DNA of 30,196 bases from Patescibacteria group bacterium (GCA_040384765.1 JAZKIQ010000002.1:16877-47072); one strand, 5' to 3'. Positions 23,868-30,196 are shown, counted from the stretch's first letter. Notes: generated by a model from the letters alone, not told the origin. Program-made: numbers and translations.

Positions 23868-24911
23868 ATGTCTGATCTCGCCCTCTATCGCAAATACCGC
23901 CCGCAGAAGTTTTCTGAGGTAAAAGGCCAGGAGCAGGTGGTGGAGGTGATCATGCGCTCGCTCAAAGATGAGAAGGTAGCCCACGCATACCTCTTTGCGG
24001 GGCCGCGTGGCACCGGCAAGACCTCGATTGCGCGCATTTTTGCTGCAGAGCTGGGGACGGCCCCTTCTGATATCTATGAGATCGACGGTGCTTCGAACCG
24101 CAACATCGACGATGTACGGGCTCTTCGCGATGAAGTACGCACCCTTCCCTTCGATTCGAAATACAAGGTGTACATTATCGACGAGGTGCACATGTTCACC
24201 AAAGAGGCGTTCAATGCACTCTTGAAGACCCTTGAGGAGCCGCCAGCACATGTGATCTTTATCCTCGCTACAACGGAGCTCCACAAGGTGCCCGAGACGA
24301 TTGTGTCGCGCTGCCAGACGTTTGTATTCAAAAAGCCTTCACAAGATATTTTGCAGTTGGTCGTGGCTAGCGCTGCCAAGAAAGAGGGGTTTTCGATAGA
24401 AAAGGAGGCGTCAGCGCTCATCGCGCTCCTCGGAGATGGCTCATTTCGAGATACACTTGGCGCACTTCAGAAAGTGCTTTCAGGTGTTGCCGGTGAAAAA
24501 GTCTCTGTTGAGGATGTAGAGCGCATTACGGGCGCGCCGAGGGCAGAGCTGGTGCGCACACTCCTTCGGGCGTTTATCGAAAAGAATGCTGAAAAAGCGA
24601 TTCTTGCTGTGCGAAGTGCTACCGCAGAAAATATTGAGATGAAGACATATCTAAAGCTCGTAATGCACGAGCTGCGCCTCGGGCTTTTGTTCAAGTTTGC
24701 ACCGGCTCTCAAAAAAGAGATTGGCGAGGAGCTCTCGAAAGACGAGGCAGATTTTCAAGAGGAGCTCGCCCAAGCGATCGGTACAAAAGATACGATCATC
24801 AACTCGACCCTTCTCCGCGAGTTGATCGATGTGTATGCCGATACTGACAAGTCGCACATTCCCTCCCTCCCGCTCGAGCTTGCCATTATGAAGCTGTTGC
24901 CAAAATCGTAA
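23868..24911 (+). CDS. dnaX: DNA polymerase III subunit gamma/tau (short form)
   Basis: LYRKYRP, GPRGTGKTS, EIDGASN, IIDEVHM, AFNALLKTLEEPP, SRC, GSFRD. Confidence 0.96.
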   Translation: MSDLALYRKYRPQKFSEVKGQEQVVEVIMRSLKDEKVAHAYLFAGPRGTGKTSIARIFAAELGTAPSDIYEIDGASNRNIDDVRALRDEVRTLPFDSKYKVYIIDEVHMFTKEAFNALLKTLEEPPAHVIFILATTELHKVPETIVSRCQTFVFKKPSQDILQLVVASAAKKEGFSIEKEASALIALLGDGSFRDTLGALQKVLSGVAGEKVSVEDVERITGAPRAELVRTLLRAFIEKNAEKAILAVRSATAENIEMKTYLKLVMHELRLGLLFKFAPALKKEIGEELSKDEADFQEELAQAIGTKDTIINSTLLRELIDVYADTDKSHIPSLPLELAIMKLLPKS

Positions 24912-25561
24912 TGAACGAAGAGTCTCCGATAAAATATATCTACTGCGTCCGCCATGGCGAGAGTGAGAGCAATGCCGGGGCTGTGCGCCAGGGCCCGGAG
25001 ACTCCTCTTACCGAAAAGGGCATGGAGCAGGCAGAGGTTGTAGGGAAGCGGCTTAAAAACCTTCCGGTGGAGGTGCTCATTGCAAGCAGTATGGTACGGG
25101 CAAGGCAGACGGCAGAGATAATCAGCGGACATATAGAAAAGCCGCTCGAGTTTACCGATCTTGCCATTGAGCGGCAGATGCCCTCGGTCGTGTACTGGAA
25201 GCATCGCGAAGATCCAGAAACAAATGTTCTCATCGATAAGCTCAAAGAGGCTTTTGAGGTGCCAGGCTGGCGCCACTCGGATGAAGAAAATTTTGACGAT
25301 CTGCGCGCCCGTGCACAAAAGGCGCTCGACTTTCTTGCTGCTCGTCCGGAAACCCATATTGCTCTCGTGACCCACGCTCACTTCCTTATCACCCTTTTGT
25401 CGGTCGCCGCACTTGGCGATGCACTCACGGGTGCTGTATACAGAAAAATGATCGAATCTTTTCGACACGAAAACACCGGCATTACCATCCTTGAATATCA
25501 TTCTGGGGTCGCGTATCCCTGGAGGATAGTTACCTGGAACGACCACGCGCATCTTGGATAG
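24911..25561 (+). CDS. Histidine phosphatase family protein
   Basis: VRHGESESN, LTEKG, SSMVRARQTA, LVTH, NTGIT, WNDHAHL. Confidence 0.92.
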   Translation: MNEESPIKYIYCVRHGESESNAGAVRQGPETPLTEKGMEQAEVVGKRLKNLPVEVLIASSMVRARQTAEIISGHIEKPLEFTDLAIERQMPSVVYWKHREDPETNVLIDKLKEAFEVPGWRHSDEENFDDLRARAQKALDFLAARPETHIALVTHAHFLITLLSVAALGDALTGAVYRKMIESFRHENTGITILEYHSGVAYPWRIVTWNDHAHLG

Positions 25562-25597
25562 AAAACAAAAAGCCGGCAGAGCCGGCTTTTTGTTTTC
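25561..25597. terminator. Bidirectional terminator
   Basis: GAAAACAAAAAGCCGGC-AGA-GCCGGCTTTTTGTTTTC, perfect 17-bp stem between convergent genes. Confidence 0.85.
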
Positions 25598-25866: not shown

Positions 25867-25912
25867 TTATCCACATTCCTGTGTACGATCGTACACAGGA
25901 ATGCTTTATAAT
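25867..25912 (+). promoter_or_regulatory. DnaA-box 9-mer, perfect 30-bp palindrome and -10 box upstream of the HTH-LAGLIDADG gene
   Basis: TTATCCACA (25867-25875); CATTCCTGTGTACGA|TCGTACACAGGAATG (25874-25903); TATAAT (25907-25912) 6 nt before the ATG. Confidence 0.65.
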
Positions 25913-25918
25913 TAAGCT

Positions 25919-26614
25919 ATGCATGCAAAAACTGAACTGAAAAAGAGGGCCGTTGAGTTGAGGTCGCTTGGAAAAACATATTCAGAAATTCGCAAAGAGG
26001 TTCCTGTGGCAAAATCCACGCTTTCGCTCTGGTTTCTTGATGTGGGTTTGAGTGAAGTTCAGAAGCAGAGGATAACGCAAAAGCGCGTCGATGCTCAAAA
26101 GAGAGGCGCTGCGCGCAGAAGAGAGCAGAGGCTTGAAATTACAAAAGAGATTAATGAACTTGCTAAACAGGATATCGCTGACATTTCTGACCGTGAATTA
26201 TGGTTAATGGGTGTAGCTTTGTACTGGGCTGAAGGATCAAAACAAAAAGAGTGGAATGTATCGCAGAGCCTACAACTTACTAACTCTGATCCCCGGATGG
26301 TCAAATTATTTCTCAAATGGCTTACCTATTCCTTGCGATTGCCTTACGATGACATTTTACTAAGTTTGGCAATACACGAAAACAACAAATATCGGCTCGA
26401 GAAAGTTAAGGAATTCTGGAAGGAACAAACTGGTAATCACTGGGATTTTTCTGATAGAGTATACTTCAAGCGCCACACACCCAAGCCAGGCAGGCATAAT
26501 CTCGGCGAGACTTATTACGGTGTATTGAGGATAACAGTTCGTAATAGTACAAATCTCAACCGAAAAGTTGCAGCTTGGGTCGAAACGATTTGTGGGCATT
26601 GCGGGGTCGTCTAA
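25919..26614 (+). CDS. HTH + LAGLIDADG-like endonuclease-fold protein overlapping tRNA-Gln
   Basis: N-terminal HTH (AVELRSLGKTYSEIRKEVPVAKSTLSLW), then MGVALYWAEGSK (LAGLIDADG-like helix), LTNSDPRMVKLFLKWL and YGVLRITV. The TAA stop lies in the tRNA D-arm. Confidence 0.8.
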   Translation: MHAKTELKKRAVELRSLGKTYSEIRKEVPVAKSTLSLWFLDVGLSEVQKQRITQKRVDAQKRGAARRREQRLEITKEINELAKQDIADISDRELWLMGVALYWAEGSKQKEWNVSQSLQLTNSDPRMVKLFLKWLTYSLRLPYDDILLSLAIHENNKYRLEKVKEFWKEQTGNHWDFSDRVYFKRHTPKPGRHNLGETYYGVLRITVRNSTNLNRKVAAWVETICGHCGVV

Positions 26615-26673
26615 CGGCAGGACTCCTCCCTTTGAAGGAGGCTATTTTGGTTCGAATCCAAACCCCGCAGCCA
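26600..26673 (+). tRNA. tRNA-Gln(UUG) with encoded CCA
   Basis: TGCGGGG/CCCCGCA acceptor stem + G + CCA; D-arm GTCTAACGGCAGGAC; anticodon arm CCTCC-CTTTGAA-GGAGG; T-arm TTTGG-TTCGAAT-CCAAA. Confidence 0.96.
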
Positions 26674-26702
26674 AGTTGAGATAGGTTCGGATTTAAAAGA
26701 GC

Positions 26703-27266
26703 ATGAAAGACAAAATTTTAGAAAAAGTTAAATTATGGTCACCGATAGTGATTGCGCTTTGTGCTCTCTTCCTGAGTATCTATCAAGGTAGTCAAACAAG
26801 GCAGCATAATCAATTGTCTGTAAAACCGAGCCTAGTCTCCACTTTCTACTACAACGATAAGAGCGTCGGGTATACTCTAGACTCTAGAGGTCTTGGCCCC
26901 GCGATAATCAAGTGGGTTGAGGTATTAGTTAACGGTAAAGCAAAAGGAAATTGGCTTGATGTTGAGTCTGCTTTGGACTTACCTGAATCAAGTGGAAGCA
27001 ATGGAATGCATTTTAATCCTTACGCGGGAGTTTCTTTGATGCCTGGTGACAAGGTGACATTGTATGCAGTTGGGTCAGATAAAAATATCAAGTATCTTCG
27101 AGATAGTTACCAGAAGGTTCGCATAAAAGTTTGTTATTGCTCAATATATGCTGAGCAAGATCAGAGGCAATGTTGGCAAGCCTCAAACTTCTTTGAGGAT
27201 ATAAAACGTACATGTGACGCAACGCCAACCACGGTATTTCCTAACACCTCTCAATCGACAAAATAA
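26703..27266 (+). CDS. Hypothetical membrane-anchored protein
   Basis: Single N-terminal TM followed by 'RQHNQLSVKP'; C-terminal CYCSIY...CW...C; AT-rich codon usage. Confidence 0.75.
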   Translation: MKDKILEKVKLWSPIVIALCALFLSIYQGSQTRQHNQLSVKPSLVSTFYYNDKSVGYTLDSRGLGPAIIKWVEVLVNGKAKGNWLDVESALDLPESSGSNGMHFNPYAGVSLMPGDKVTLYAVGSDKNIKYLRDSYQKVRIKVCYCSIYAEQDQRQCWQASNFFEDIKRTCDATPTTVFPNTSQSTK

Positions 27267-27310
27267 ACAGATTCCGAAGCATATCTATGAAATATATCTG
27301 CAACTGATCT

Positions 27311-27850
27311 ATGGTAACCATTATTTTTGTACCGCATAGCACAACTCTCGATAACGAGGCGCATCTCTCGTCGGGTCATAATGATGTAGCTCTCTCGCCA
27401 TTGGGCGAGCAGCAGTCTCGAAAGGATATTGGTGAGTACTACAAAGATGACCACTTTGATGCAATATTTTGTTCTGACTTGCAGCGTGCGTATAAAAGTG
27501 CAGAAATTGCTTTTGGCGATACATTGCCAATTATAAAAGACGCTCGTCTTCGAGAGTGCAATTATGGCGATCTCACGCAGCATCCGAGCGAGGAGGTAGA
27601 CAAGCAAAAACCGCTTCGTATTTCTGAACCCTTTCCGAATGGTGAAAGCTATACAGAGACAACTGCTCGAATGAAGAGCTTTCTCGAGGATCTTCTGAAG
27701 AACTACAATGGAAAACGAGTGATGGTTATCGGCCATCGTGCCACGCAGTACGGCCTCGACAATCTTATTAAGGGCATACCTTTAGAACAGCTCGTGTCAG
27801 CTCACTTTAAATGGCAGCCAGGGTGGGAGTATGAATTAAAAGTAGTTTAG
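27311..27850 (+). CDS. Histidine phosphatase family protein (variant PHS motif)
   Basis: FVPHSTTLDN in place of RHG, SDLQRAYKSA, RLRECNYGD, FPNGES, VIGH. Confidence 0.85.
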   Translation: MVTIIFVPHSTTLDNEAHLSSGHNDVALSPLGEQQSRKDIGEYYKDDHFDAIFCSDLQRAYKSAEIAFGDTLPIIKDARLRECNYGDLTQHPSEEVDKQKPLRISEPFPNGESYTETTARMKSFLEDLLKNYNGKRVMVIGHRATQYGLDNLIKGIPLEQLVSAHFKWQPGWEYELKVV

Positions 27851-27860
27851 TTGCCTCCTT

Positions 27861-27881
27861 GTTGGATGTTGAATGTCCAAC
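27861..27881. repeat. GTTGGAC-N7-GTCCAAC family palindrome, copy 1 (inverted)
   Basis: GTTGGATGTTGAATGTCCAAC; reverse complement GTTGGACATTCAACATCCAAC; 10 nt after the stop at 27850. Confidence 0.75.
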
Positions 27882-27889
27882 AGCGAAAT

Positions 27890-27917
27890 CAAAAACCACC
27901 CGTTTGGGTGGTTTTTG
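27890..27917. terminator. Intrinsic terminator
   Basis: CAAAAACCACCC-GTTT-GGGTGGTTTTTG. Confidence 0.8.
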
Positions 27918-27958
27918 CTTGCGTTGAAATTAAGGCCTAAAAATGGTAAAAACTACTG

Positions 27959-28492
27959 ATGAGTCTCTACTTCATTACGGGCAGTGCTTCAAAACTCTCA
28001 GAGGTCAAAGCTATTCTTGCAGATGTAGAACAGCTTGGTATCGATCTGCCTGAAATCCAGGATATTGATCCTCATACTATTATTCGAGCAAAACTGGAGG
28101 AAGCTCGAAAACATCAGGAGGGCGATTTTATTGTAGAGGATACTTCTTTGTACTTTGATGCACTAAACGGATTGCCAGGTCCACTCATAAAGTGGTTTAT
28201 GAAGACTGTTGGGAATGATGGGCTATACAAAATAGCTGAAGCCTATGGCAATTTTGGAGTAGAAGCCAAGACCATTGTTGGCTATTCAAGTGGAGATAAG
28301 ATTGAGTTTTTCGAAGGGTCTATTCGAGGATCTATTGTAAAACCACGAGGTGAAACTGGCTTTGGCTGGGACCCCATTTTTGAACCCACCGGGTACGATA
28401 AAACTTTTGCTGAGCTTGAACCGTCTCTAAAAAATAGTATCAGTATGCGTAAAGTGGCTGTAGAAAAACTTAAAACATATCTTCAGAATTAA
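27959..28492 (+). CDS. Non-canonical purine NTP pyrophosphatase (Ham1/ITPase/RdgB family)
   Basis: FITGSASKLSE, DLPEIQ, VEDTSL, LNGLPGPLIKW, FGWDPIF, TFAEL, KNSISMR. Confidence 0.93.
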   Translation: MSLYFITGSASKLSEVKAILADVEQLGIDLPEIQDIDPHTIIRAKLEEARKHQEGDFIVEDTSLYFDALNGLPGPLIKWFMKTVGNDGLYKIAEAYGNFGVEAKTIVGYSSGDKIEFFEGSIRGSIVKPRGETGFGWDPIFEPTGYDKTFAELEPSLKNSISMRKVAVEKLKTYLQN

Positions 28493-28495
28493 TGT

Positions 28496-28831
28496 ATGGA
28501 AATTATAAATTGGAATGACCTCGAAAAAGTAGAGTTACGGGTGGGGACGATCGTTGAAGTGCAGGACTTTCCTGAGGCTCGAAAGCCTGCATATAAGCTC
28601 GTGATCGACTTTGGAGAGTTCGGCCTCAAGAAGTCGAGTGCTCAGATTAAGGCACTGTATACAAAGGAAGAACTCGTTGGAAGACAGATTGTTGGTGTAA
28701 TAAACTTTCCCCCAAAGCAGATCGGCCCATTTATTTCGGAGTGTCTCACGACAGGGTTTGCGGACGAGAATGGTAACGTGGTTTTGACTCAACCTGAGCG
28801 TAAGGTGCCTAACGGAGCTAAGATTTTCTAA
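28496..28831 (+). CDS. csaA: tRNA-binding protein / CsaA (Trbp111 family)
   Basis: [51 protein letters not shown]. Confidence 0.9.
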
Positions 28832-28837
28832 GCAATG

Positions 28838-28858
28838 CTTGGACATTCGATATCCAAC
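28838..28858. repeat. GTTGGAC-N7-GTCCAAC family palindrome, copy 2
   Basis: CTTGGACATTCGATATCCAAC, 6 nt after the stop at 28831. Confidence 0.75.
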
Positions 28859-28916
28859 GCTCAAGATTTCTCTCTCGGGTATTGTTCCTTTATTGATCTA
28901 TCAAACAACCTAAACC

Positions 28917-29231
28917 ATGTATCAGGATTTTGATCGGTTAAGAGAAAAAATAAAAAAAGTTTTAGAAAGATATAAGGCAGATTTTCCTGAGGTAAAAGTA
29001 GATCGGGACTATTTTCCACTTAAGATCTCAGAAGAATGGGGAGAATGTATGCAGGCCTATCTTATGCTTACTGATCGTGGTCGGAATAAAGGTAAAACAA
29101 AAGAAGAAATGAGAGCCATGCTTTCTGACGAATTTGCTGATGTGCTAGGCTTTCTTCTCCTCTTTGGGGAAAGTGAGGGAATCGATCCAGCTGAGGCTCT
29201 CGCTAAAAAGTGGTTTAAGCATCTTGAGTGA
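28917..29231 (+). CDS. MazG-like all-alpha NTP pyrophosphohydrolase
   Basis: LKISEEWGE...DEFADVLG (EExGE / ExAD metal-binding motif), ending ALAKKW. Confidence 0.85.
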   Translation: MYQDFDRLREKIKKVLERYKADFPEVKVDRDYFPLKISEEWGECMQAYLMLTDRGRNKGKTKEEMRAMLSDEFADVLGFLLLFGESEGIDPAEALAKKWFKHLE

Positions 29232-29242
29232 TTCCAGTTATG

Positions 29243-29263
29243 GTTGGACATTCGATGTTCAAC
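29243..29263. repeat. GTTGGAC-N7-GTCCAAC family palindrome, copy 3
   Basis: GTTGGACATTCGATGTTCAAC, 11 nt after the stop at 29231; 25/29 identical to copy 2 including flanks. Confidence 0.75.
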
Positions 29264-29275
29264 GCTTAGACGTTT

Positions 29276-29569
29276 ATGAAATTTAAGACTGACAAATACA
29301 AGAGTGCGCGGGGTGGTTACTCTCGCTTTCTGAGAATCTCTTGTCAGAAATGTGGATCTTTGATTTGTACCTATCAAAAGGACGGTCCGGGGAATCTGCG
29401 GAGAATGTACCTAGATCGAATAAACGAGCCGGCGGTTCCTCTGTCCAGAAAAGATCTCACGTGCCTACAAGGTCATCTGTTGGGTATAAAAACCATCTAT
29501 GAAAAGGAGAATCGAACAGCATTTAGGCTTTTTGTCGATTCGGTAGTCAAAAAAATTGTTAAGAGCTAG
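29276..29569 (+). CDS. Small basic hypothetical protein with possible Zn site (CxxC...CxxxH)
   Basis: SCQKCGS, YQKDGPGNLRRMYLDRI, CLQGH. Confidence 0.75.
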   Translation: MKFKTDKYKSARGGYSRFLRISCQKCGSLICTYQKDGPGNLRRMYLDRINEPAVPLSRKDLTCLQGHLLGIKTIYEKENRTAFRLFVDSVVKKIVKS

Positions 29570-29575
29570 TGTTGT

Positions 29576-29594
29576 GTTGGACTTTGTGTCCAAC
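29576..29594. repeat. GTTGGAC-N5-GTCCAAC palindrome, copy 4
   Basis: GTTGGACTTTGTGTCCAAC, 6 nt after the stop at 29569. Confidence 0.7.
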
Positions 29595-29632
29595 TGCGGG
29601 TGAGTTCAACATTCTTTGCTAAGCTTTGAATA

Positions 29633-30196
29633 ATGGAGATGGACTATAAAGCGATTATCAGTCTGATAGTTATTATCCTTACCTTTGCTGGGTATATTCC
29701 ATACGTTCGAGATATTTTCCAAAAGAAAACAAAGCCCCACGCCTTTACCTGGTTTTCAGTATCACTTACCGCTCTGGTGGCGTTCGCGCTTCAGGTGGTC
29801 GGTGGGGCGGGGGTTGGGGCGTTCCCAATGCTGGTTGTTTCAGTTGTTTGTATATTCGTTTTTGGACTCAGTCTTTGGAGGGGCACTAGGGATGTAACAA
29901 AATCAGATCTCCTTTTTCTGATATTTTCAATCGTTGCGTTGTTCCTTTGGTTGGTAGTTAAGCAGCCAGTGCTTTCCATCATCCTCATCACCTGCTCAGA
30001 GGTTCTAGGTTTTGTACCTACGATTCGAAAATCCTGGAAAGATCCATATTCGGAAACTCTTTCTCTCTATCAAGTCAGTATGGTCAGGCATGGTCTGTCC
30101 ATATTCGCTCTTGAAAATATAAACATACTGACTGCTCTCTATCCTGCGGCGTGGGCTCTTATTAACGTTGTTATCACGGCTATCCTTGTAACTCGA
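29633..30196 (+). CDS. Multi-TM membrane protein (partial, runs off the right edge; absent from the ORF track)
   Basis: Open frame MEMDYKAIISLIVIILTFAGYIPYVRDIFQKKTKPHAFTWF...GFVPTIRKSWKDPYSETL...; two PQ-loop-like repeats; TGcTAAGCT 7 nt upstream. Confidence 0.8.
   Translation, partial: MEMDYKAIISLIVIILTFAGYIPYVRDIFQKKTKPHAFTWFSVSLTALVAFALQVVGGAGVGAFPMLVVSVVCIFVFGLSLWRGTRDVTKSDLLFLIFSIVALFLWLVVKQPVLSIILITCSEVLGFVPTIRKSWKDPYSETLSLYQVSMVRHGLSIFALENINILTALYPAAWALINVVITAILVTR

Follow-up and report, generated by a model that had tools for sequence, protein, structure and literature searches.

Four palindromes behind stop codons in a Patescibacteria genome are probably worn, orphan REP hairpins and not sites of a new gene-cassette system

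We analyzed a 30,196-nucleotide (nt) stretch of DNA from a Patescibacteria group bacterium (GCA_040384765.1, JAZKIQ010000002.1:16877-47072; hereafter the window), in the AT-rich tail of which a tRNA-Gln gene is followed by a row of small co-oriented genes and by four short palindromes of the type GTTGGAC…GTCCAAC, each standing just behind a stop codon. A first-pass annotation of the same DNA had taken this arrangement for a gene-cassette capture or shuffling system worked by a tyrosine recombinase, naming only in passing the alternative that the palindromes might be substrates of HUH-type transposases. It is this alternative that our results favor: we consider it likely that the four palindromes are worn, orphan repetitive extragenic palindromes (REPs), belonging to a family of REPs and REP-associated tyrosine transposases (RAYTs) found across an order of the candidate phyla radiation (CPR), and that they are not the sites of a new cassette system. 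The same palindrome brackets Y1_Tnp transposase genes in eight relatives, its stem covaries across genomes, and the genome from which the window comes (G000) has no detectable RAYT and holds imperfect copies throughout. For the window itself the result is mainly a correction, in that an apparent new cassette-capture system becomes a small, worn cluster of REP hairpins. In its wider context, it brings to light a single REP core present in at least 35 genera of a CPR order and associated with Y1 transposase genes, each end of which bears the hairpin and some of which contain it within their reading frame; a literature search for REP/RAYT systems in CPR/Patescibacteria bacteria found no paper on them.

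Pattern searches recovered all four palindromes at the positions first noticed. Copy 1, GTTGGATGTTGAATGTCCAAC, lies at 27861..27881 on the minus strand, inverted by its centre, and has three mismatches to the core of the family (TTGGACATTCGATGTCCAA); copy 2, CTTGGACATTCGATATCCAAC, at 28838..28858 on the plus strand, has one mismatch to the core and a C-A mispair in its stem; copy 3, GTTGGACATTCGATGTTCAAC, at 29243..29263 on the plus strand, also has one mismatch, which would become a G-U pair in RNA; and copy 4, GTTGGACTTTGTGTCCAAC, at 29576..29594 (no strand assigned), has perfect 7-bp arms around a centre, TTTGT, that is 2 nt shorter than in the others. All four are intergenic and fall within 1.7 kb. 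The stop codons ahead of them end at 27850, 28831, 29231, and 29569, and the palindromes begin 10, 6, 11, and 6 nt later, so that the spacing of 6 to 11 nt originally described is correct. A strongly decayed and uncertain fifth copy may be present at 29604..29624 (no strand assigned), where the string GTTCAAC-ATTCTTT-GCTAAGC, read by eye, fits a GTTCAAC-ATTCGAT-GTTGAAC form at approximately 16 of 21 positions. The geometry initially proposed, 7-bp arms around a 7-bp spacer, does not hold up as well: the element is more accurately given as two 9-bp arms separated by a 3-nt centre, GTTGGACAT-TCG-ATGTCCAAC.

The exact palindrome form with a gap of 5 to 7 nt, which copy 4 matches, occurs in none of 100 shuffled sequences, while a looser search allowing three mismatches is not significant when taken alone (3 matches, with 10 of 100 shuffles giving at least 3). 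Neither the exact nor the three-mismatch search found a further copy in the window, as had been claimed, and none was found in the other 820 kb of the assembly. Scanning all 12 contigs with up to two mismatches in the arms and a gap of 4 to 9 nt gave 10 matches; four are these copies, and the remaining six, all on other contigs, have unrelated spacers. We found no other abundant palindrome family of this 9-3-9 type of build in G000.

Membership of the four copies in a wider family is apparent from a sample of 301 genomes of the same CPR order (G000 and 300 others, representing 191 genera). Allowing up to two mismatches, the core TTGGACAY-YCG-RTGTCCAA was present in 39 of the 301 genomes and in 35 of the 191 genera, compared with one match each in 4 genomes for a reversed-pattern control. 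Motif-bearing genomes hold from 1 to 19 sites, the largest number being that of G020. Common variants of the core are TTGGACATCCGATGTCCAA, TTGGACACTCGGTGTCCAA (which carries a paired T-A to C-G change), and CTGGACATCCGATGTCCAG; in addition, G046 (the same genome as G042, with identical site coordinates) has 8 sites of exactly the ATTCGAT variant seen in G000, on longer stems such as CCAAATGA…TCATTTGG. In an alignment of 66 sites over a 14-pair stem, 85.4% of cells are paired, versus 71.6% in shuffles (0 of 500 as high) and no more than 43.7% with the pairing shifted out of register. Both sides have changed in 145 cells, some of them in flank columns that were not used to select sites. The inner pairs belong to the site definition, and the six outer pairs do not; the two innermost of those six are paired in 56 and 60 of the 66 sites. 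The lower stem in relatives is genome-specific and altered by paired substitutions.

Placement just after stop codons is itself a trait of the palindrome family: for 21 of the 73 sites in the other genomes, the stop codon of an open reading frame (ORF) of at least 90 amino acids (aa) lies no more than 25 nt upstream, compared with 7.4% of non-ORF positions, both figures resting on crude ORF calls. In relatives the palindrome is also scattered genome-wide beside housekeeping genes, a distribution that the first-pass annotation had itself listed as telling against its cassette proposal. For example, in G020 one copy sits between ORFs of 218 and 283 aa, which by eye alone we took for L25 and fructose-bisphosphate aldolase.

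Several other observations were made on repeats of related appearance. Two genomes, G041 (L044 1465-1520) and G261 (L064), contain tandem arms resembling bacterial interspersed mosaic elements (BIMEs), GTTCAAC-ATCCGAT-GTTGAAC-ATTCAAT-GTCCAAC, in which three arms recur every 14 nt; those of G041 stand 13 nt beyond the stop codon of a 376-aa ORF that, by eye alone, we took for a glutamate dehydrogenase gene. An exact scan of the genome_contigs collection with TTGGACATTCRAYRTYCAAC returned 29 stretches from very diverse phyla and was uninformative except that two of the records led to G041 and G042, our own estimate being that approximately 17 would occur by chance in 596 Gb. This degenerate 20-mer matches five contigs of one Niastella metagenome-assembled genome and two of Niastella populi, a pattern that may reflect an unrelated repeat of this genus containing a similar word. 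Within G000, the end of contig C12 (approximately 73 nt) and the start of contig C5 (approximately 30-55 nt) recur genome-wide at 85-95% identity and thus represent other repeat families.

The connection of the family to RAYT genes is provided by eight genomes (G020, G088, G067, G153, G150, G017, G046, and G290) in which the palindrome brackets an IS200-like Y1 transposase gene, lying within approximately 50 nt of it and with the flanking copies inverted by centre in 7 of the 8. Four of the encoded proteins match Pfam Y1_Tnp (PF01797) at 31.4-36.4 bits against a cut-off of 23, that of G020 scoring 36.4; the genes of G153, G150, G017, and G290 were identified by homology or motif reading and not through Pfam. 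The G020 locus has two palindromes upstream of the RAYT gene, one in frame inside it, and one 12 nt past its stop, and copies cluster locally around the gene (five within 3 kb in G020, three within 0.8 kb in G088). The RAYT of G046 (L051 1521-2234) is flanked by G000's own ATTCGAT variant. Across five aligned RAYTs the motifs LMPNHxHL and Y.H.NP are invariant, the choice of catalytic tyrosine being putative. The aligned proteins form two clades that are just 31% identical and have the hairpin core in common. Looking at RAYT loci more broadly, 10 of 12 that we fetched have, on either side of the gene, a palindrome of 19-21 bp built around a 3-nt centre, the palindrome's sequence differing from RAYT to RAYT. 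Of the 38 other genomes bearing the motif, 32 have a RAYT homologue, versus 141 of the 262 without the motif, and in 15 of 15 genomes with at least three sites.

One of the two RAYT clades has a REP copy in frame inside the RAYT gene, encoding LDIGCP at the same place in four genomes (G020, L083 3400-3438; G088, L087 2942-2980; G067, L090 1650-1688; G153, L091 666-704); the clade of G046 and G290 is without such a copy.

The copies in G000 present a different picture. No RAYT was found in this genome with two RAYT proteins or with PF01797 as queries. None of the four copies is a perfect palindrome, whereas those in RAYT-bearing genomes mostly are. The predicted RNA hairpins have energies of -10.1 kcal/mol for copy 1 (a 10-pair hairpin in the sense RNA, including two G-U pairs), -4.1 for copy 2, which is weak, -9.1 for copy 3, and -10.7 for copy 4, and as DNA the copies fold at -2.7 to -6.7 kcal/mol. 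The comparison hairpins reach -15.5 (RNA) and -11.3 kcal/mol (DNA) in G020 and -22.1 (RNA) and -15.9 kcal/mol (DNA) in G046. The four copies, all of them imperfect and with weaker hairpins in a genome that has no detectable RAYT, thus look like decaying orphans. This state matches the loss of a RAYT followed by shrinking and decaying REPIN (REP doublet forming hairpins) populations that is described by Bertels and Rainey (bioRxiv 10.1101/2021.07.10.451892), and G000 may serve as an example of the RAYT-less end state, with few, clustered, and imperfect copies, that their decay model predicts; the loss of tnpA-REP from some E. coli strains is likewise noted in PMC3333891. At the mispaired stem positions of copies 1-3, 3 of 4 remain G-U pairs in the sense RNA, which are too few to be taken as a sign of selection on RNA.

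A history consistent with these observations would begin from the form seen in relatives, a perfect hairpin in which the apical core TTGGACAY-YCG-RTGTCCAA is mounted on a genome-specific lower stem and which is dispersed through the genome, often just after stops. If the enzymes act as E. coli TnpA-REP does, a RAYT would cut and rejoin the single-stranded hairpin and thereby spread it. The copies in G000 might then have been left by local proliferation around a RAYT since lost or unassembled, or might have arrived together with the AT-rich segment. Their present role is most likely passive. Since they lie in a row of co-oriented genes, they are expected to be transcribed, in the sense strand, and modest hairpins directly behind four stop codons would, as for the REPs of E. 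coli, provide 3'-end or intercistronic structures in the mRNA; the copies in G000 probably still form hairpins in transcripts. REPs stabilise the upstream mRNA. Messages containing REPs are also targets of RNase R and PNPase, according to PMC12320835.

A number of points weigh against reading the four palindromes as orphan REPs. The defining partner of a REP is missing from this genome, in that no RAYT is seen in G000, and its four copies are far fewer than in classical REP systems, where a genome usually has more than 100 (PMC2817692). Decay alone leaves unexplained why all of the copies in G000 are clustered in 1.7 kb of compositionally distinct DNA. As regards the family, 34 of the 73 sites fall inside naively called ORFs, such that "extragenic" is not strictly true of it. 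RAYTs are common in the order (homologues in 173 of the 300 other genomes), making the co-occurrence of motif and homologue weak evidence; the relatives are not independent, and no RAYT match was obtained for 6 of the 38 genomes bearing the motif. Finally, the G020 protein scores 36 bits on the NCBIfam RAYT equivalog model, for which the cut-off is 80, and a sequence search with the G020 RAYT against the Protein Data Bank gave no match.

The local clustering and the distinct composition of the tail would also suit a different account, in which a REP/RAYT unit is still live with its transposase just beyond the end of the contig, or in which the AT-rich tail has been mis-joined from another CPR organism of the sample. 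The G000 assembly comprises 822 kb in 12 contigs and is rated 99.83% complete; the window lies on contig C2 and ends where that contig ends, 600 nt beyond the last palindrome copy, and the C2 end overlaps none of the other contig ends of G000. Only one of the sequencing runs contains the stretch; its public contigs cover 27000-30123 without differences and stop there, at a word depth of approximately 6.5, two sister runs yielded short fragments only, unlike the stretch, and no RNA run turned up. RAYT homologues are present in all three other genomes of the same family, and in relatives, as noted above, copies do cluster around the RAYT. That the tail is AT-richer, as first reported, is evident from its GC content, which is 0.41-0.45 from approximately 25.5 kb on and 0.50-0.63 upstream, and from the GC content at third codon positions (GC3), which is 0.31-0.50 in tail genes versus 0.56-0.62 in six backbone genes. 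Other AT-rich islands exist inside contigs of G000, however, and composition alone is therefore no proof of a chimera; moreover, all four copies are imperfect, in contrast to the mostly perfect copies of RAYT-bearing genomes, and an assembly of such high rated completeness has no copy in its other 820 kb. The three same-family genomes (G001-G003) gave no DNA match to the tail and a single partial match to histidine phosphatase, at a contig end. While the tail may have been acquired or mis-joined, a live unit or a mis-join is on balance an unlikely explanation of the palindromes.

Starting again from REPs, one might imagine that pairs of them allow a RAYT, acting in trans or since lost, to excise and reinsert the one- or two-gene segments lying between them. 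We regard this as quite improbable. If true, small house-cleaning genes (Ham1, MazG-like, and histidine phosphatase) would be shuffled, much like cassettes, within a REP-bounded zone following tRNA-Gln, a gene-mobilising role not described for REP/RAYT systems.

The cassette proposal itself, in which each palindrome would be the recombination site at the 3' end of a mobile unit in an integron-like or other tyrosine-recombinase system, can draw on the position of the sites 6-11 nt after four stops, where they bound units of one or two genes in a compositionally distinct region. A difference in gene order could be read in the same way: G006 has tRNA-Gln, the histidine phosphatase gene, and the gene for a 97-aa protein in the same order as G000, but a different gene separates the latter two, in place of the three genes that copies 1 and 3 bound in G000. 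However, G006 is of a different family, so this difference says little, and there is no palindrome at its locus. The sites do not travel with the genes elsewhere either. Among 36 DNA matches to array genes in 30 other genomes, 0 stand beside a palindrome of the family, even in the family-bearing genomes G006, G169, and G180, and on metagenome contig L100 the histidine phosphatase and Ham1 genes are adjacent with a 7-nt gap and no palindrome, where the corresponding gap in G000 is 108 nt and contains copy 1 together with a terminator hairpin. A metagenome scan with the Ham1 protein likewise found the palindrome in 0 of 80 loci (666 kb), the best relatives being 62-68% identical. DNA matches to the array genes are scattered over 30 other genomes at approximately 66-75% nt identity; backbone genes are 64-72% identical to other genomes of the order, so that no sampled genome stands unusually near to the tail.

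Nor was machinery for cassette movement found nearby: the window ORFs scanned hold no recombinase, the backbone carrying ParB, RelA/SpoT, TopA, DprA, SerRS, Dus, ArgRS, and DnaX-type genes, and the sole PF00589 gene of the assembly is on contig C4. A duplicated 3' half of tRNA-Gln, which would border an island inserted at the tRNA, is absent from the assembly, though the contig ends inside the tail. Insertion at the tRNA is argued against by the shared gene order in G006 and by the GC shift, which begins approximately 0.7-1 kb ahead of tRNA-Gln, at an unannotated 231-aa ORF, and not at the tRNA. Together with the bracketing of Y1 transposase genes and the proximity to housekeeping genes in relatives, these results make a cassette system extremely improbable.

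Equally little credence can be given to the idea that the palindromes have no mobile history and serve as operators for a dimeric DNA-binding regulator or as terminators that evolved locally. A symmetric 9-3-9 palindrome would suit a dimer, paired changes in the arms are expected for an operator too, stem covariation is compatible with such a function, and the sites do lie between co-oriented genes. Their distance from the stop is nevertheless constant, that to the next start ranging from 12 to 77 nt; none of the four copies has a T-run behind it or is flagged by a terminator scan. In relatives, paired substitutions make the lower stem differ by genome, and the element occurs inside reading frames and bracketing transposase genes; neither observation fits an operator or an ordinary terminator. 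Other candidates failed more directly: promoters (from the resemblance of TTGGACA to a -35 box) gave 3 matches in a promoter scan, fewer than the shuffle mean of 8.5; the stem and loop lengths do not fit a mimic of the tRNA-Gln T-arm (TTGG..TTCGA..CCAA); and a few copies per genome is the wrong number for a DNA-uptake sequence or a dif site, being neither thousands nor exactly one.

With regard to the genes of the array, ORF calls and a family scan bear out the seven small co-oriented genes originally seen, all on the plus strand. At their head stands tRNA-Gln (anticodon UUG; 26600..26673, plus strand; ARAGORN), which at 57.5 bits is alone in passing the Rfam scan, the remaining matches being far under the gathering score. 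Gene 1 (26703..27266) encodes a 187-aa protein that matches no family of Pfam or NCBIfam over the cut-off, and no palindrome comes after it. Gene 2 (27311..27850) encodes a histidine phosphatase (His_Phos_1, PF00300, E 2.3e-30), and its DNA has approximately 70% nt identity to genes in at least 10 genomes of the order. Genes 3 and 4 encode a nucleoside triphosphate pyrophosphatase of the Ham1/ITPase family (27959..28492; PF01725, E 4e-42) and a protein with a tRNA-binding domain (28496..28831; PF01588, E 9.7e-15). Gene 5 (28917..29231) is weakly MazG-like (PF12643, 24.9 bits, under the 27-bit cut-off). Gene 6 (29276..29569) encodes the 97-aa protein whose homologue in G006 is located after tRNA-Gln and the histidine phosphatase gene, and gene 7 (29633..30196) a membrane protein left 3'-open by the contig end; for neither did an ORF match a Pfam or NCBIfam family over the cut-off. 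The terminator-type hairpin directly after copy 1, AAAAACCACCC-GTTT-GGGTGGTTTTT (27891..27916, plus strand), was recognised by sequence reading and folding and has near-identical short matches in other genomes of the order.

Further features lie at and ahead of the composition boundary. The 231-aa ORF at which the AT-rich tail starts (25919-26614, plus strand) overlaps with its 3' end the first 15 nt of tRNA-Gln; it belongs to no family, giving only a faint helix-turn-helix match of 14 bits, and by eye contains a stretch that we presume to be LAGLIDADG-like. Just ahead of it, at the boundary itself (25874-25903), is a perfect 13-pair palindrome, CATTCCTGTGTAC-GATC-GTACACAGGAATG. The window has a second histidine-phosphatase gene at 24911-25561, 1.7 kb from gene 2, with a backbone-like GC3 of 0.57 as compared with 0.44 for the gene in the tail, and the two are too diverged for a mutual match at E 1e-10. 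Directly 3' of the upstream gene is a hairpin region (approximately 25549-25597) that, like the 13-pair palindrome, is unrelated to the REP palindrome. In G006, past the block shared with G000, a near-identical GGGCTATAATACYTGGTATG motif precedes several genes and ends at the start codon (L011 8560-8590, 9225-9255, and 10015-10035); from its sequence it resembles a -10 box in repeated form, which would imply starts with no leader or a very short one.

Set against known systems, the palindromes of G000 share with Rho-independent terminators a hairpin a few nt after the stop codon. They differ in having no T-run and in the conservation, across genera, of sequence and not of shape alone, and behind copy 1 there is in addition a distinct hairpin of typical terminator form. 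With the subterminal hairpins of IS200/IS605 elements and their gene-less derivatives (palindrome-associated transposable elements, PATEs) they have in common that the hairpins would be recognised by a Y1 HUH transposase and that non-autonomous copies exist. Here, however, one short palindrome occurs on both sides of the gene in place of distinct left and right ends, and no defined element ends or target sequence were found. Integron attC sites, the partners of IntI, resemble them in being imperfect palindromes directly after the stops of successive co-oriented small genes, and the arm words fit GTTRRRY/RYYYAAC. Sites of the attC type are approximately 57-141 bp long and have two pairs of core boxes and extrahelical bases, whereas those of G000 are simple hairpins of 19-21 bp with no integrase gene near the array, and they do not accompany the genes in other genomes.

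The closest likeness is to the REP/RAYT systems of Proteobacteria, including E. coli REPs and BIMEs with TnpA-REP and the REPs or REPINs of Stenotrophomonas and Pseudomonas. Their layout is defined by Nunvar and colleagues (PMC2817692) and Ton-Hoang and colleagues (PMC3333891), the latter also reporting that E. coli TnpA-REP cleaves and rejoins single-stranded REPs in vitro, a finding for that enzyme only. In both cases short intergenic palindromes are dispersed through the genome and flank, mostly in inverted orientation, a Y1/HUH transposase-like gene; the hairpin sequence changes with the gene, copies cluster locally, and few, degraded copies are kept in genomes without the gene. Unlike the proteobacterial systems, with usually more than 100 copies per genome (PMC2817692), those of the CPR order have few (4 in G000, at most 19 sites). 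The CPR element also has arms of 8-9 bp around a 3-nt centre, with its conserved part at the top of the hairpin. Classical REPs bear a GTAG/CGTC tag at the foot of the hairpin, and no conserved tetranucleotide is found there in the CPR element. Further differences are that one CPR core spans many genera and two RAYT clades only 31% identical, that copies also occur in frame inside the RAYT gene, and that the CPR protein scores under the NCBIfam RAYT cut-off and G000 lacks a detectable RAYT. REP/RAYT systems are well known in Proteobacteria, and the G000 locus is an ordinary, degraded member of that kind.

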